From positions 1,088,001-1,152,000 of the forward strand of contig CAWCKH010000004.1 in assembly GCA_963796055.1 (NCBI GenBank): a DNA stretch of 64,000 nucleotides, in the 5' to 3' direction. The notes under the pieces were generated by a model. That model was not told the DNA's origin. It made no database searches and saw only the letters and a list, made by a program, of their open reading frames with translations. A program made the translations under genes and the position numbers. Source of the stretch: an uncultured delta proteobacterium (GTDB lineage Bacteria; Myxococcota; Myxococcia; Myxococcales; Myxococcaceae). This document shows positions 22,739-43,410 of this stretch, in pieces (positions within the stretch are counted from its first letter, which is position 1; the number at the start of each line of letters is the position of its first letter).

Positions 22739-24316
22739 GTGACTGCGCGCCGCACCCCCATCGTCCAGCAGGCGGTGGCATCCCTGCTGGTCGCCGCGCT
22801 CGGCGGGTACCCGGTCCGAGCGCTCGCCCAGCAAGGCGCCCCGGCGCAGGGCGCTCCGGTCCAGTCGGTCCCTCCGCCGCCCGCCTACGCGCCGCCCCAG
22901 CCGGTGCCGCAACAGACCTACGCCCCGCAGCAGGCCCCTCCGCAGCAAGCCCCTCCGCAGGGCTACGCGCAGCAGCCGGCGCCGCCCCAGCAGACCTACG
23001 CCCCCCAGCAGGCCGCTCCGCAGCAGGCCCCTCCACAGGGCTACGGGCAGCAGCCGGCGCCGCCCCAGCAGACCTACGCCCCCCAGCAGGCCGCTCCGCA
23101 GCAGGCCCCTCCACAGGGCTACGCGCAGCAGCCGGCACCGCCCCAGCAGACCTACGCCCCCCAGCAGGCCGCTCCGCAGCAGGCCCCTCCGCAGGGCTAC
23201 GCGCAGCAGCCGGCGCCGCCCCAGCAGACCTACGCCCCCCAGCAGGCCGCTCCGCAGCAGGCCCCTCCGCAGGGCTACGCGCAACAGCCGGCGCCGCCCC
23301 AGCAGACCTACGCCCCGCCTGCGCCCGCGTACGCACCCCCGGCCGCAGCTGGCGCCGCGGTGGCCGCGCCCGGCGCTCCCGCCCCCGCCGCACCCCCGCA
23401 GCCCTATGCTCCGGCGCCCCAGGCTGCACCGCAGGGGTACGCCCCGGCGCCCGCGCCCCAGCAGCCGACCTACGCGCCACCTCCACCCGCCTACGCGCCC
23501 CCTGCCGCCGCGGGTGCAGCCGCCGGTGCCGCGGTGGCAGCGCCCGCGGCCCAGGCCCCGGCGGCGCCGCAGGGTGCCCAGCAGCCCGCCCCGGCGGCCC
23601 CCCAGCCCATGGTGCAAGACGCCCCCACGGCCGCTCCGCGCGTCCCACCTGGCGCAGTGCTGATCCCGCCGACCGCCGCACCCGCCCCGGCGCCCACCCG
23701 CTCGGGGGACGCGGACCTCGGCTCGGCACCAGCGCCTCCGCCCCCGCCGGGCCATGCGCCCAAGGCCCCGAGCGCCCAGAAGTCCGCTCCGGTGGACGAC
23801 CGGCTGATTCGCCTCGAGTGGCGGCCGGCGCACGTCGAGGGGAACCAGGGCTGGGGACCGATGGTGCAGGTCCCGGTGATGGGACCCTACAAGCGTCCGT
23901 TGAATGGGCGCTCGCTGTACACCGCTCTGGGTCGGAACGACCTGGCGGAGGAGTACGAGCGCCGCCTCGCCGCCAAGCGCATGATGGGCGTGGGCAGTGC
24001 GCTCCTGCTCGTCTCCGGCATCGCAGTCGGCATCAGCGCCTTCACGATCCACGGTTGCAACCCGGGTGACGCGAAGTGCTGGGACGACCGCGACGCGCAG
24101 CTCAGGTCGCGCTTCTACTGGTCGGGCGGCCTGGTGCTCGGCGGCGCCGTGCTCGGCATCGCCTCGAGCGCCTACAGTCCGCATCCAGTGTCGCGCGACG
24201 AGCTGATCGGCCTCATCCGCCAGCACAACGATCAGATCCGGAGCCAGCCCGGCGTCCACCTGGGCGCGATGGCGCTCCCGGGCGGCGGCGGCCTCAGCCT
24301 CGCCGGAGCGTTTTAG
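22739..24316 (+). CDS. Exported Pro/Gln/Ala-rich repeat protein with C-terminal hydrophobic segments
   Basis: RBS GAGGAG, GTG start, signal peptide (VRALA|QQ), 26-aa repeats, two hydrophobic helices, terminal GGGGLSLAGAF. Confidence 0.75.
   Translation: MTARRTPIVQQAVASLLVAALGGYPVRALAQQGAPAQGAPVQSVPPPPAYAPPQPVPQQTYAPQQAPPQQAPPQGYAQQPAPPQQTYAPQQAAPQQAPPQGYGQQPAPPQQTYAPQQAAPQQAPPQGYAQQPAPPQQTYAPQQAAPQQAPPQGYAQQPAPPQQTYAPQQAAPQQAPPQGYAQQPAPPQQTYAPPAPAYAPPAAAGAAVAAPGAPAPAAPPQPYAPAPQAAPQGYAPAPAPQQPTYAPPPPAYAPPAAAGAAAGAAVAAPAAQAPAAPQGAQQPAPAAPQPMVQDAPTAAPRVPPGAVLIPPTAAPAPAPTRSGDADLGSAPAPPPPPGHAPKAPSAQKSAPVDDRLIRLEWRPAHVEGNQGWGPMVQVPVMGPYKRPLNGRSLYTALGRNDLAEEYERRLAAKRMMGVGSALLLVSGIAVGISAFTIHGCNPGDAKCWDDRDAQLRSRFYWSGGLVLGGAVLGIASSAYSPHPVSRDELIGLIRQHNDQIRSQPGVHLGAMALPGGGGLSLAGAF
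22910..23315 (+). repeat. 78-bp in-frame tandem repeat, 5 full units plus partial sixth (QQTYAPQQAAPQQAPPQGYAQQPAPP)
   Basis: Units start at 22910, 22988, 23066, 23144, 23222 and 23300 with few substitutions. Confidence 0.95.
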
Positions 24317-27478: not shown

Positions 27479-28741
27479 ATGCGCGAACACACCCGCATGC
27501 TGCTCGGGCTGGCCGTCGGCGCGGGACTGGGCCTGGTGGCCAGGGCCCTGGCCGGGGATGCACCGTGGCTGGCGTGGACCCTGGCCAACGTCACCGGTCC
27601 CATCGGCCAGGCCTTCCTCCGCCTTCTGTTCATGCTGGTGGTGCCGATGATCTTCTCGGCCCTGGTGATGGGGGTGGCCGACCTCGAGCTCCGGCACCTC
27701 GGCCGGCTCGGAGCGCGGGCGCTCGGCTACACCGTGGTCATCTCCACCATTGCGGTGCTGATCGGGATCGGCCTGGTGAACCTGTTCCGACCCGGCGAGG
27801 GCATGAGCGACGAGGTCCGGGCGCTGGCCCGCTCGAGCGTGGTCCCCAAGGCCGCGGTGGCCCCGAGCGACACCTCGGCGGCGTCGCTGCTGGTGTCCAT
27901 CATCCCGGACAACCCGGTGAAGGCGGCGGCCAGCGGCGACTATCTGGGGCTCATCTTCTTCGCCCTGGTGTTCGGCATCGCCCTGGGGCTGACCCGGGCG
28001 CCGGCCGCCGAGCGGCTCAAGGAGGTCATCGCCGGGCTGTACGAGGTCACCCTGGTGCTGATCAACGGAGTGTTGAAGGTCGCCCCGCTGGGCGTGGCCG
28101 CGCTGCTCTTCGGTCTGACTGCCCGGCTCGGGTTCGACGTCCTCCGCCAGCTCGCCGCCTACGTGGGGGTGGTGCTGCTCGGCCTCGCGCTGCACATGTT
28201 CGTGGTGTACTCGCTCTCGGTCCGCTTCTTCGGCGGCCGGAACCCGGTGCAGTTCTTCCGCGACGTGCGGATGGCGGCGATCACCGCCTTCTCCACCGCG
28301 TCGTCCAACGCCACCCTGCCCACCTCGCTCAAGGTCGCCGAGGAGGAGCTGCGGCTTCCACCCAACGTGGCCCGCTTCGTGCTCACCGCCGGCGCCTCGA
28401 TGAACCAGAACGGCACCGCGCTCTTCGAGGGCGTGACGGTCCTCTTCATCGCCCAGCTCTTCGGGGTTCATCTCAGCCTGGATCAGCAGATCGTGGTGAT
28501 GTTCATCTGCGTGCTCGGGGGGGTGGGCACCGCCGGGGTACCCGCCGGCTCGCTTCCGGTCATCGCGATGATCCTCGGGTTGTTCCACATCCCTCCCGAG
28601 GGTCTGGGGCTCATCCTCGGCGTCGACCGCCTGCTCGACATGTGCCGGACGACGCTCAACGTGGTGGGCGATCTCGCTGCTGCGGTCTACGTGGCCCGCG
28701 GCGAGCCGGTGGAGGAGGCCCCGGTGGCATCCACCTCCTGA
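27479..28741 (+). CDS. Dicarboxylate/amino acid:cation symporter (DAACS)
   Basis: FLRLLFMLVVP, AFSTASSNATLP, MNQNGTA, GVDRLLDMCRTTLNV. Confidence 0.93.
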   Translation: MREHTRMLLGLAVGAGLGLVARALAGDAPWLAWTLANVTGPIGQAFLRLLFMLVVPMIFSALVMGVADLELRHLGRLGARALGYTVVISTIAVLIGIGLVNLFRPGEGMSDEVRALARSSVVPKAAVAPSDTSAASLLVSIIPDNPVKAAASGDYLGLIFFALVFGIALGLTRAPAAERLKEVIAGLYEVTLVLINGVLKVAPLGVAALLFGLTARLGFDVLRQLAAYVGVVLLGLALHMFVVYSLSVRFFGGRNPVQFFRDVRMAAITAFSTASSNATLPTSLKVAEEELRLPPNVARFVLTAGASMNQNGTALFEGVTVLFIAQLFGVHLSLDQQIVVMFICVLGGVGTAGVPAGSLPVIAMILGLFHIPPEGLGLILGVDRLLDMCRTTLNVVGDLAAAVYVARGEPVEEAPVASTS

Positions 28742-29376
28742 CCGCGGAGGAGGACCCACGCACAGCTGCCCATCCAGGCCACCGCCGCCAGCAGGGCGAA
28801 TCGCTGCATCGCGGGCACGGCCACCGGCAGCGGCGCCTCGCGGAAGGTGAGGTAGAGCCCCAGCTCGAGGGCTGCGAGCATCAGGGAGGCGGCGCCCAGC
28901 AGCGCCAGCACCGGGCGAGGGCGGAGCCCGCGCACCACCAGCGCCGCGGCCACGAAGCCCGGCCCCGCGCCAGAAAGCAGCGCCAGCGCGTGCGGCACCC
29001 CGCGGGTCACCGGCACCAGCAGCAGCCCGAGCGCGCCCAGCGTCCCGAGCACGCGCACCCGCCTCGCGGTGCGTCCCCCCACCAGCGCCGGGACCATCCA
29101 CCAGAAGAGGCACAGGGCGGCGATGAACGCCCACTCGGCCGCGCGACCCCAGGGCGCCCCCGGGTTGTGACGTCCGTTCACGGCCATGTCCCGGGCGATG
29201 TCGCAGAGGAAGTTGGCCCACAGCGAGTGGCCGGCGGCCTCCGGGTCCACCCAGTTCCCACCGGGGTACTGCGCCGCCCCGACCACCGTGGTCACCGCGC
29301 CCGCCACGAGCAGCGCCAGCAGCGCCGCCGCCAGGGCCGAGGTCCAGCCGCGCGGAGGCGTTGACGGAGCGGGCAT
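28687..29376 (-). CDS. Hypothetical multi-pass membrane protein
   Basis: YPGGNW..SLWANFLCD motif and about 6 hydrophobic segments; 3' end overlaps the symporter by 55 nt. Confidence 0.65.
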   Translation of the reverse strand: MPAPSTPPRGWTSALAAALLALLVAGAVTTVVGAAQYPGGNWVDPEAAGHSLWANFLCDIARDMAVNGRHNPGAPWGRAAEWAFIAALCLFWWMVPALVGGRTARRVRVLGTLGALGLLLVPVTRGVPHALALLSGAGPGFVAAALVVRGLRPRPVLALLGAASLMLAALELGLYLTFREAPLPVAVPAMQRFALLAAVAWMGSCAWVLLRGQEVDATGASSTGSPRAT

Positions 29377-29470
29377 CTCCCCCAGTCCATCACGGGCGGA
29401 CCTGGAGGGGCTGTTTTCACCCCGAGGGGGAGTTCACCCTCAGTCAGCGCTGCCCCGCAGCCGCCTCGCC

Positions 29471-30003
29471 GACTGCGGCCGCCCTGACCTCGCCGACTGC
29501 AGCCGACCTGACGACACTCTAACCCGGACCTCGACTGCGGCCGCCCTGACCTCGCCGACTGCAGCCGACCTGACGACACTCTGACCCGACCTCGACTGCG
29601 GCCGCCCTGACCGAGCTGACTGCGGCCGCCCTGACCTCGCCGACTGCAGCCGACCTTACGACACTCTGACCCGGACCTCGACTGCGGCCGCCCTGACCGA
29701 GCTGACTGCGGCCGCCCTGACCTCGCCGACTGCAGCCGACCTGACGACACTCTGACCCGGACCTCGACTGCGGCCGCCCTGACCGAGCTGACTGCGGCCG
29801 CCCGGACCTCGCCGACTGCAGCCGACCTGACCGAGCTGACTGCGGCCGCCCTGACCTCGCCGACTGCAGCCGACCTGACGACACTCTGACCCGGACCTCG
29901 ACTGCGGCCGCCCTGACCGAGCTGACTGCGGCCGCCCGGACCTCGCCGACTGCAGCCGACCTGACGACACTCTGACCCGGACCTCGACTGCGGCCGCCCT
30001 GAC
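29471..30003 (-). repeat. Modular non-coding array: 19 x 18-bp cores (GACTGCGGCCGCCCTGAC / GACTGCAGCCGACCTGAC on +) with three recurring linkers
   Basis: Cores at 29471, 29495, 29533, 29557, 29594, 29618, 29642, 29680, 29704, 29728, 29766, 29790, 29814, 29838, 29862, 29900, 29924, 29948 and 29986. Linkers CTCGCC, CGAGCT and GACACTCTGACCCGGACCTC. Abuts the RES stop codon. Confidence 0.95.
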
Positions 30004-30768
30004 CTAGATGGCAGGCGCCGGGAGCTGGCCCGCCACCTCGAACTGCGCGCGGGGGAAGACCAGCCGGGTCCGCTCGAACCAGTCGAGCTTCTGCATCTCC
30101 ACCCGCTCGCGCGTGGCCACGCAGCGCCAGGTCTCCGGAGCGCGCGGGGTCTTCCGGGCCAGGGCGCGCGGGGTGAAGAGCGCCACGTTGGGTGCGCCGG
30201 CGAGGTCGCGGGCGCTGGGGTAGCGCACGAGCTCCACGCCGTCGGTCCGCATCTCGGCGCCGAGGCGCTGGGTGGCCTCGTATCGGCTCCTCGAGGCGAG
30301 GACCCGGTGGTGGGCCTCGAAGGGAGAGCGGGTCAGGTCCACCGCGGCGCGGGTGCGGACGTCGGCCCGGAACGCGCTCAGCTCCACCGTCAGCGGCGAG
30401 AGCACAGCCTGGGTCCCCTCCAGGAACAGCAGGCGGTAGTACGCGGTCTCGGCCATCGCCGTCTCCAGCGCCTCGCTGGCGTAGAACAGCGAGCGCTCGG
30501 CCCGGGTACCGAAGCGCGAACCGTGGGTCAGCGGCGGATGGCGGAAGGGCGTGAGGAGGAGGTAGTGCAACCCCTCGAACTCGGGACCCGCCGGCGCGGG
30601 CGGCTTCACCCGGTCGATCAGGGCCTCGAGGATCTCCTGCTCGGCATCCGAGTCGACCAGCCGCCGGGTGGCGTTCCGGTGCTGGGCCTCCACCACCCGC
30701 CACACAGGACCTTGGTAGGGGCGGAGGTTACGTTTTCCCCCGCACTGCATCCAGATACTCGTCGACAC
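30004..30768 (-). CDS. RES-domain protein (MbcT/ParT-like NAD+-acting toxin)
   Basis: WRVVEAQH, GSRFG..FYASE..TAMAETAYY and RYPSARD (R-E-S residues); downstream of an Xre/MbcA antitoxin. Confidence 0.88.
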   Translation of the reverse strand: MSTSIWMQCGGKRNLRPYQGPVWRVVEAQHRNATRRLVDSDAEQEILEALIDRVKPPAPAGPEFEGLHYLLLTPFRHPPLTHGSRFGTRAERSLFYASEALETAMAETAYYRLLFLEGTQAVLSPLTVELSAFRADVRTRAAVDLTRSPFEAHHRVLASRSRYEATQRLGAEMRTDGVELVRYPSARDLAGAPNVALFTPRALARKTPRAPETWRCVATRERVEMQKLDWFERTRLVFPRAQFEVAGQLPAPAI

Positions 30769-31111
30769 GCACCAGCCCCGCCACGCTCTGGATGCACTCT
30801 AGGGGCGCGGCTGACAGGTGCCCGTTCCGGGCGCGGAGCCAGGTCCGGGCCTTCTCCGCATCACCGCCCACCAGCGCGTCCAGGCTCCGGTAGAGCCGGA
30901 GGAAGAGCAGCGCCAGCTCGCCTTCCTTGCTGTCCGGGTCCACCGTGCGCTGCCCCGCGGCCAGCCTCGACCAGGAGGCCGCGCTCACCCCCACCACCCG
31001 GGCCATCGTCTGGCCGTTGAGGCCGAGGACCGATGCGGCGCGGATCAGCGCTCGGGAGAGCACCACCGCCGGGTCGGGCGCGGGAAGGGACGCTGAGGAA
31101 CGCCGGGCCAT
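30728..31111 (-). CDS. Xre/MbcA/ParS-family antitoxin
   Basis: N-terminal HTH (MARVVGVSAASWSRL), LYRSLDALVG..ARTWLRARN..P and YLDAVRG C-terminal domain. Confidence 0.88.
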   Translation of the reverse strand: MARRSSASLPAPDPAVVLSRALIRAASVLGLNGQTMARVVGVSAASWSRLAAGQRTVDPDSKEGELALLFLRLYRSLDALVGGDAEKARTWLRARNGHLSAAPLECIQSVAGLVRVDEYLDAVRGKT

Positions 31112-31114
31112 CTC

Positions 31115-31154
31115 TTTCAGGTGAAATCTTAAGTCCAGATATATTCAGATGCAA
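31115..31154 (-). promoter_or_regulatory. Sigma-70 promoter of the TA operon with overlapping palindromic operator
   Basis: Minus strand TTGCAT (31154-31149), 17 nt, TAAGAT (31131-31126). Palindrome TTTCA-GG-TGAAA at 31115-31126. AT-rich island in high-GC DNA. Confidence 0.7.
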
Positions 31155-31163
31155 GCCAGGTCT

Positions 31164-32408
31164 TCAGACCGGCCGGAGCAGCCAGCCGCACCAGGTGCTA
31201 CCCAGCACCGCCACCTGTCCCGCCAGCACCCGGAGCAGGTAGGCGCGCGAGCCCGAGGTCGCCGCCAGCACCACCTTGGTGACCGCGTTGCTGCTGGTCG
31301 CGACCAGTACCGCGAGCGCGGCCGCTTCGGGCGGAACCGCCGACCGGGCAACCAGCGCTCCGGTCGACCCGGCGAAGGCGTGCGCGTCGGCCAGGCCGCT
31401 CACCGCCGCAGCGACCAGGAGCCCCGCGCCGCCGAACCGTCGCTGCACCACCGTGGCGACGAGAGAGACCAGGGTGACCAGCCCGGCGAAGAGAACGGCA
31501 TCTCCCAGGCGGAACGCCGCCCCCGAGCGCACCGGCGGCGCCTCCGTCCGGGCGGCATGGCGGGCGAACACCGCGGCGACGATCAGCGCGGTGAGCCCCC
31601 CGGCGGAGAGGGACACGGCGAGGGGGCGCAGCAGTGCGGTGCCCGAGGCCGCGAGCAGCAGCGCGAGCTGGACGAAGGTGGCGACCGAGGAAGCCGTCGC
31701 TCCGGACACCGCCGCGGCGAGCACCCGGGGCTCCCGCGAGGCAAGACGGCCCATGGCGGCGACGGTGGCGGCGCTGGAGACGAACCCCGAGACGAGCCCG
31801 GCGAGGGCGAGCCCCACCCGGGGACGGACTAGCTTCTGAGCCAGCGCGCCGGCGGCCCCGACGCCCATCATCACCACCACCAGCTTCCAGACGTCGAACG
31901 GGCTGATGGCCCCGAAAGGGTCCACCGGGCGATCCGGCAGCAGAGGAAGGATCAGCAGCGCCGACACCCCGAAGACCAGCGCGTTCTGCAGCTCGCGATC
32001 GGTGAAGAGCTTCCGCGCCAGGCCGTGCAGGCGGGCCCGGAACGCGAGCAGGGTCGAGCTGGCGAGCGCGGCGGCGAAGGCCAGCGCTGGGGCTCCCTGG
32101 GCGAGGACCCCCAGCGTGAAGGCGAGCACCAGCGCCACCTCGGTGGTGAGCCCCGGGTCCGGCTCGGTCGCCCGCCAGGCCACGAGCAGGGCCAGCAGGA
32201 CCACCGCGGCGCCCGCCGCGCCCAGCACCACCGCGCTTCCCGTCTGCAGCGCCACCCCGCCCAGAAGCGAAGTCAGGGCGAAGCTGCGAAGCCCGGCCCA
32301 CCGGCGCGGCCGCTCGGCGTCGCGCGCCCGCTCGCGCTCGAGCCCCATCACCAGGCCCACCCCGAGCGCGACCAGCAGCCTCCATTCAGGCCGGTCCTCG
32401 AACCCCAT
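31164..32408 (-). CDS. MgtC/SapB-family N-terminus plus DUF4010 membrane protein
   Basis: GLVMGLERE..AGLRSFAL, GLTTEVA, GFVSSAAT and SGLADAHA. Confidence 0.85.
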   Translation of the reverse strand: MGFEDRPEWRLLVALGVGLVMGLERERARDAERPRRWAGLRSFALTSLLGGVALQTGSAVVLGAAGAAVVLLALLVAWRATEPDPGLTTEVALVLAFTLGVLAQGAPALAFAAALASSTLLAFRARLHGLARKLFTDRELQNALVFGVSALLILPLLPDRPVDPFGAISPFDVWKLVVVMMGVGAAGALAQKLVRPRVGLALAGLVSGFVSSAATVAAMGRLASREPRVLAAAVSGATASSVATFVQLALLLAASGTALLRPLAVSLSAGGLTALIVAAVFARHAARTEAPPVRSGAAFRLGDAVLFAGLVTLVSLVATVVQRRFGGAGLLVAAAVSGLADAHAFAGSTGALVARSAVPPEAAALAVLVATSSNAVTKVVLAATSGSRAYLLRVLAGQVAVLGSTWCGWLLRPV

Positions 32409-43280: not shown

Positions 43281-43410
43281 GTCAGGGCGGCCGCTGTCGA
43301 GATCCGGGTCAGGGGTCCTCAGGCGCTATAGTCGGCGAACTCAGGGCGGCCGCTGTCGAGTGGTCAGGGCGGCCGCTGTCGAGTGGTCAGGGCGGCCGCT
43401 GTCGAGATCC
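43281..43410 (+). repeat. Second, shorter copy of the modular repeat family (4 x GTCAGGGCGGCCGCTGTC plus one degenerate B core)
   Basis: Cores at 43281, 43340 (first base C), 43363 and 43386. Colinear with the reverse complement of the 30003 end of the first array. Starts at the base after the GST TAG. Confidence 0.92.

Follow-up and report, generated by a model that had tools for sequence, protein, structure and literature searches.

The window, by which we mean the whole 64,000-nucleotide stretch of DNA analysed here, contains a RES-Xre toxin-antitoxin locus in which the stop codon of the RES gene is followed by an array of short repeats. The features of this locus are listed in Table 1, together with a second locus of the same repeat family. 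The antitoxin gene scored under the cut-off of NF049845. In several relatives the gene for the 229-aa protein likewise lies behind RES after a short spacer. An imperfect inverted repeat (window 30737-30805, 19-nt arms, 31 nt apart) spans the overlap of xre and res.

Table 1. Features of the RES-Xre locus and of the repeat family in the window
Feature	Position	Strand	Basis
229-aa hydrophobic protein gene, downstream and co-directional	28687..29376	-	no Pfam match
Decayed right end of the repeat family (core A end and IS1182 TIR-like tail)	29438..29469	+	local alignment
Tandemly expanded repeat copy with 24, 62 and 86 nt modules	29471..30003	-	core parse
CTAG insertion target including the RES stop TAG (30004-30006)	30004..30007	-	CTAG is the family's commonest tag
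RES-domain toxin gene, 254 aa, host gene outside the element	30004..30768	-	PF08808, E 8e-30
Xre/MbcA/ParS antitoxin gene, 127 aa	30728..31111	-	PF09722, PF20432
Second family locus, 4 cores, directly after a glutathione S-transferase TAG	43281..43403	+	core search

In our parse the array consists of 19 cores, each 18 nt long; 12 belong to type A and 7 to type B, and linkers of 6, 6 and 20 nt separate them. Core A holds the palindrome GCGGCCGC, with a T to G variant in 2 of its copies. Core B contains CTGCAG, differs from core A at 3 positions and is a degenerate core A. Read on the plus strand, each B (7/7) is preceded by an A plus the linker CTCGCC and the 20-nt linker is found solely after B (6 times, once as 19 nt). 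TRF reported periods of 24, 62 and 86 nt. On the minus strand the first core begins one base past the RES TAG, which is itself part of a CTAG. The initial annotation had described exactly this arrangement, with two 18-bp cores, three linkers, a grammar in the order of A and B, and a first core directly 3' of the RES stop on the transcribed strand, and both our parse and the coordinates agree with it. It had also stated that the array breaks any reading frame, but on the transcribed strand the frames are not interrupted by stops: this strand is nearly stop-free, with 0, 1 and 1 stops per frame and one frame open for 177 codons. We nevertheless call the array non-coding because neither 62 nor 86 nt, two of its periods, is divisible by 3 and because copies of the repeat vary by frequent indels of 1-5 nt; in its lack of coding capacity the family is like a MITE.

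The array is among the two largest of its family in the source genome, and the count of 19 cores is the count as assembled (7 contigs, longest 3.66 Mb). It is very improbable that this number reflects the expansion of a shorter array during assembly. The irregular order of the modules and the private variants (a 1-nt deletion and three point variants) would be unlike a collapsed or looped assembly, the source assembly is in few pieces, and independently assembled relatives carry arrays of 9-10 cores. The decayed right end that adjoins the far end of the array is inverted relative to it and aligned with a score of 32, which was reached in 0/2000 shuffles. Elsewhere in the window (22906-23316), 5.3 copies of a 78-nt in-frame tandem repeat encode a Pro/Gln/Ala-rich stretch of a 570-aa ORF.

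A consensus scan of positions 29000-31400 detected no terminator-like or promoter sites. Given that the array lies on the same strand as the genes with no terminator-like site between them, it is predicted, and likely, to be co-transcribed with xre-res. It had been proposed that the array may have a role specific to the toxin-antitoxin system, for example as the source of a processed repeat RNA which, like a type III antitoxin, would neutralise or tune the RES toxin. In type III systems, ToxI and its kin, the repeat array lies upstream of the toxin gene, has a terminator at its end, is locus-specific and conserved with the toxin gene, and is processed into unit RNAs by the toxin. The array after RES resembles these in consisting of short tandem repeats beside a toxin gene, but it lies downstream of that gene, belongs to a dispersed family and is absent at orthologous loci. 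We found RES homologs in 11/12 same-genus genomes. The RES orthologs, which are 87-91% identical, do not carry the array, and no core was found within about 1.5 kb at 13/13 fetched same-genus RES loci. Similarly, five RES loci from other genera had no core at the stop, and the single match, with 3 mismatches, lay about 1 kb off. The repeat is present at 58 other loci of the source genome, where it follows many unrelated genes. A protein antitoxin is already encoded beside RES, and Rfam at gathering thresholds gave 0 matches over the window, the array included. A TA-specific element would fit the position of the array at the RES stop and its large size, but we give it almost no credence: our observations largely refute this reading, and the link of the array to RES is incidental. 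In one same-genus genome, G004 (contig C6; L025, L029), the RES ortholog is split over two frames, either by an assembly error or as a pseudogene.

The dispersed repeat family and its CTAG target

When the source genome (G000, 5.53 Mb) was searched with core A we found 81 exact matches and 190 at ≤2 mismatches. Four shuffled cores gave 0 exact matches and 2-4 at ≤2 mismatches in the same genome. The core A matches fall into 59 loci, each of which has between 1 and 19 cores. At 50/59 loci the repeat begins directly past a stop triplet (47 TAG, 2 TAA, 1 TGA), and at 45/59 a same-strand gene-like ORF lies upstream, as called by our own codon log-odds model, not a standard gene finder. These upstream genes are unrelated. 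Eight of 11 that we scanned had a Pfam match, all different, and they include genes for a tautomerase, a T2SSE ATPase, AceK, a YCII protein and a GST. The basic unit consists of core A, a 44-nt middle and a second core A; roughly one copy in three additionally has the right terminal inverted repeat (TIR) of the resident IS1182. We are almost certain that the repeat is dispersed and not TA-specific.

The family is restricted to one genus. Exact core A was found in 10/12 same-genus genomes and 0/28 genomes of other genera. A scan of a species-level genome collection gave 33 loci, all of them titled Myxococcaceae, Myxococcota or uncultured delta-proteobacterial MAGs. Among 53 loci from relatives, which were selected by exact core match, 48 lie after a stop and 42 of these stops are CTAG. 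The family is apparently undescribed: we found no description of it in the literature searched, although published repeat catalogues (e.g. that of PMC3733652 or those of large MITE surveys) could list it. The arrays are also of practical use for typing strains in this uncultured genus.

The tag found most often in the family is CTAG (30/59 loci). Gene-like stops in the source genome comprise 2769 TGA, 1086 TAG and 148 TAA, and among the TAG stops GTAG (661) is more frequent than CTAG (349). In contrast, CTAG accounts for 30 of the 47 TAG tags of the family, compared with 349/1086 gene-like TAG stops (p 7e-6). Since CTAG is preferred over the commoner GTAG, we conclude that the rule is a CTAG target and not stop codons as such. 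Harmless insertions pile up at TAG stops because CTAG is rare in this genome (1211 sites) and about 28% of its sites are gene stops.

Comparison of orthologous sites in the source genome and the same-genus genomes G006, G010 and G012 revealed how the repeat sits in its target. At C4:1487030 the empty genomes have a single CTAG that is common to two convergent genes, 3/11 genomes are filled, and in G006 and G012 a CTAG is present on both sides of the insert. A likewise duplicated CTAG was seen at C3:157551 in comparison with G010, where the copy is full-length with a tail; the cleanest duplication, at C4:1487030, belongs to a tailless copy. CTAG present twice in filled and once in empty sites is the target-site duplication that is also found with MITEs. 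At loci shared across species a non-CTAG tag often faces CTAG in the ortholog, and the non-CTAG tags fit drift after insertion. We found that 27/43 mappable loci of relatives are empty in G000 and that for three young G000 loci none of the 10, 9 and 9 orthologs carries an intact copy. This presence/absence polymorphism shows past movement of the repeat. Array lengths also vary between orthologous loci.

A stop-codon recoding signal (PYLIS-like) was considered and rejected. Filtered aragorn output contained only tRNA-Sec and no CUA-anticodon tRNA, and orthologs without the element terminate at the corresponding position with a different stop codon.

Relation to a resident IS1182 element

The source genome carries six copies of a 1.6 kb insertion sequence, all CTAG-flanked, with a transposase of the IS1182 type (NF033551, 366.5 bits, cut-off 270). 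Three copies that we compared are identical. A 4-bp target duplication has been reported for the IS1182 element ISPse1 (PMC3281130). At 18/59 repeat loci we found a terminal tail that corresponds to this IS's TIR, with an exact match over 15 nt, so that the repeat has an end in common with an autonomous IS of its host, as MITEs do. In addition, the repeat starts with 13 nt that are also found just inside the left TIR of the IS, and the end of core A has 10 nt in common with its right subterminal region. For end matches of this kind, 11-mers occurred in <0.1% of random 70-nt windows, with the family included. Among IS homologs across the phylum, 25/28 loci had an end matching the CTAG-plus-TIR start with ≤1 mismatch. 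Since the ends of these homologs have the same motif, we conclude that the tail of the repeat is IS-derived.

The left TIR was seen in no copy of the repeat, and the 44-nt middle gave no convincing match in the IS. MITEs have TIRs at both ends; the repeat has the right TIR alone, at the 18 loci mentioned. A two-TIR parent MITE was not found: the one metagenome scan for TIR plus core gave 2 matches, both of them the IS itself, one internally deleted.

The repeat shares features with several known systems (for general background see PMC3184786). Like MITEs mobilised by an IS, here IS1182 (NF033551), it is short, non-coding and multi-copy, with a 4-bp target duplication and an end identical to the TIR of a resident IS. 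It differs from them in having one TIR, in 18/59 copies, in that its other end is a subterminal match to the IS, and in being GC-rich and polar to the host gene. Pneumococcal BOX elements, boxA-boxB(n)-boxC, are likewise modular composites with a variable tandem middle and IS-related ends, often at gene 3' ends, and longer BOX copies are reported to vary more (PMC3049150). BOX has TIRs at both ends, with ISSpn2 as its proposed partner, whereas here the end module itself is tandemly repeated, and we liken the two by architecture, not sequence. BrickBuilt of Porphyromonas gingivalis is described as a minisatellite within a MITE-like element of narrow host range, present in about 20 copies (PMC4596501). 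As described there, its ends are inverted repeats and its distance from genes is 49-591 nt, whereas our repeat starts right past the stop. In its behaviour the repeat is MITE-like and in its build it resembles a BOX-type composite or BrickBuilt, but since it does not have TIRs at both ends we do not class it as a MITE. It is an ordinary kind of mobile DNA in a somewhat unusual form, with two oddities for a MITE-like element, the single TIR and the fixed orientation to the host stop.

We think it likely that the array after RES is a locally expanded copy of a genus-restricted, non-coding, BOX-like and non-autonomous repeat that occupies CTAG sites at gene ends and is moved by IS1182. The family would have arisen from a deletion derivative of the IS1182 lineage that lost its left TIR, and the IS1182 transposase would move the repeat in trans, with the conserved 13 nt at its start standing in for the missing left end. 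The tail may have been lost through deletion between short CTA repeats. Copies would later decay or expand, and arrays probably lengthen through slippage or unequal recombination, a route also reported for boxB arrays (PMC3049150). The RES gene would be one CTAG stop hit in this lineage and the array a passive 3' passenger of the xre-res transcript. Several points speak against mobilisation by IS1182. The cut of a DDE enzyme at an end without the left TIR is unexplained, 41/59 loci are without a tail, as is the copy with the cleanest CTAG duplication, the 44-nt middle has no convincing match in the IS, and the cognate IS was not found intact in 12 same-genus genomes, which are mostly fragmented assemblies. 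Should it prove true, the repeat would be a handle on the poorly studied mechanism of IS1182.

Four further observations concern the IS itself. An intact IS1182 (G000:C4:1657503-1659126, L031) sits in the CTAG of a single-core copy of the repeat, between the stop of the gene and the core. Two directly oriented IS1182 copies, of which the second has a frameshift, are separated by about 2.7 kb (G000:C4:2582094-2587970) and form a possible composite transposon. A metagenome contig (L097) carries an internally deleted two-TIR derivative of the same IS1182 at a TAG stop. Finally, in IS1182 homologs from other Myxococcota (L214, L209-L212) each TIR is followed on its inner side by tandem hexamer repeats or hairpins, which suggests that the subterminal regions of this IS group readily grow repeats.

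Polarity and conservation of the core end

The repeat is strongly polar with respect to the gene it follows. At 44 loci it is the core end that meets a sense-strand stop; at 2 it is only the tail end, at 1 both ends and at 12 neither. Among the 18 loci that keep the terminal CTAG, the sole ones with a scorable right end, the ratio is 12 vs 2 (p about 0.013, hand calculation). In contrast, the six IS copies show no bias at stops, with two placed by the left end, two by the right end and two by neither. In G006 the element is inverted at a shared locus, and its core end is then at the stop of the convergent gene. This one-way orientation despite a palindromic target is unexplained by mobilisation through IS1182 and counts against it.

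Both the polarity and the missing left TIR would be explained if the repeat were a REP/REPIN-type element whose single-stranded DNA is moved by a RAYT-like HUH nuclease and inserted 3' of a coding-strand CTAG, with the IS1182 TIR gained secondarily by a founder copy. GTAG-type REPs are reported to often supply the TAG of flanking ORFs (PMC3733652), and Y1 transposase genes are present in 13/13 genomes of the genus. Like the GTAG REPs, BIMEs and REPINs with RAYT as described there, our repeat is extragenic, lineage-restricted and long-lived at orthologous sites, and it often supplies or adjoins a TAG stop. It differs from them in its CTAG tag, which is duplicated, and in its cores, which are direct repeats arranged head-to-tail. 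REPs are palindromes of 20-40 nt with a GTAG or CGTC tag beside a RAYT (Y1) gene, whereas the palindrome here is only 8 nt, the tag is mostly CTAG, and none of the 30 Y1 loci fetched, out of 45 matches, has core A, while many of them carry another repeat. Moreover, both ends of the repeat match IS1182 ends. We regard movement by an HUH nuclease as improbable. The initial annotation had considered a REP/BIME-like element and a linked RAYT/HUH gene; the element is indeed a dispersed repeat, but the linked transposase is the IS1182 DDE enzyme and not RAYT.

The RAYT-like Y1 genes are about 300-360 aa long and occur at 1-6 per genome in all 13 genus genomes (e.g. G000:C4:2031891-2035130, L032; G000:C4:1005110-1008343, L033; L237-L264); the one tested against NF047646 scored below its cut-off. 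A separate short palindromic repeat, for which G000 has 82 near matches, often lies beside them, and these genes and that repeat probably make up a REP/RAYT system distinct from the core A family.

The core end is also well conserved. In 19 filled copies at three genus-wide loci (picked because they are shared, with filled copies recognised by their first 4 nt and one inverted and one 5'-truncated copy left out), the first 13 nt differ from the consensus at 6/247 positions (2.4%) and the core at 28/342 (8%), while fourfold-degenerate sites upstream of the same loci differ at 146/568 (26%). At these shared loci the first 13 nt thus show about one tenth of the divergence of fourfold-degenerate sites, and they are better kept than expected of a passive relic of IS1182. 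This low divergence may come from selection on the core, from repeated insertion at hot spots or from exchange between species. Identity of the 44-nt middle was 0.77 between orthologs and 0.73 between paralogs (8 pairs), which does not separate vertical inheritance from repeated insertion.

The whole array folds at a z of -3.7 (20 shuffles) because a self-complementary octamer is repeated in it, and only this invariant octamer pairs in the predicted fold. The antisense strand folds at least as well against shuffles (z -2.0) as the sense strand (z -1.3). Among 51 units we found compensatory base changes at 0/11 RNAalifold pairs, and slid controls matched the observed counts. A conserved structured RNA was rejected for lack of covariation, and given this and the antisense folding, RNA structure does not explain conservation of the core.

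An addition to mobilisation by IS1182, and one that does not exclude it, is that the host keeps the IS1182 debris as a putative protein-binding motif or a putative control motif close to the stop. Either the first 13 nt or a two-octamer GCGGCCGC hairpin would then affect terminating ribosomes or the 3' end of the mRNA, or would be bound by a DNA-binding protein. The low divergence of the first 13 nt and the core and the strong polarity to the stop are consistent with this, as is drift of the CTAG tag (GTAA, CTGA, CTAA, ATAG) beside perfect or near-perfect cores and the presence of one locus in 9/10 genomes. The distance to the stop is also that at which translation effects are reported for E. 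coli REPs, which are said to stall ribosomes when ≤15 nt from the stop (PMC12306157). We nonetheless find such a function rather unlikely. Most loci are patchy or lineage-specific, as the empty sites in G000 and the absence of its three young loci from orthologs indicate, and the host genes have no function in common. The folding and covariation results also speak against it, and repeated insertion at hot spots or cross-species exchange would lower divergence as well. Host selection on the core, if real, would make it a case of a transposon end turned 3'-end regulatory motif.

A still more doubtful extension would combine these elements: a one-ended IS1182 derivative with fixed polarity at UAG stops may have been domesticated in one genus as a stop-proximal control motif, with the first 13 nt under purifying selection and copy number tuning the effect, as a DDE counterpart of REP/RAYT. 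As a separate observation, two copies of the family lie head-to-head between convergent genes in the source genome, each at the TAG of its own gene (G000:C4:2325249-2325708).
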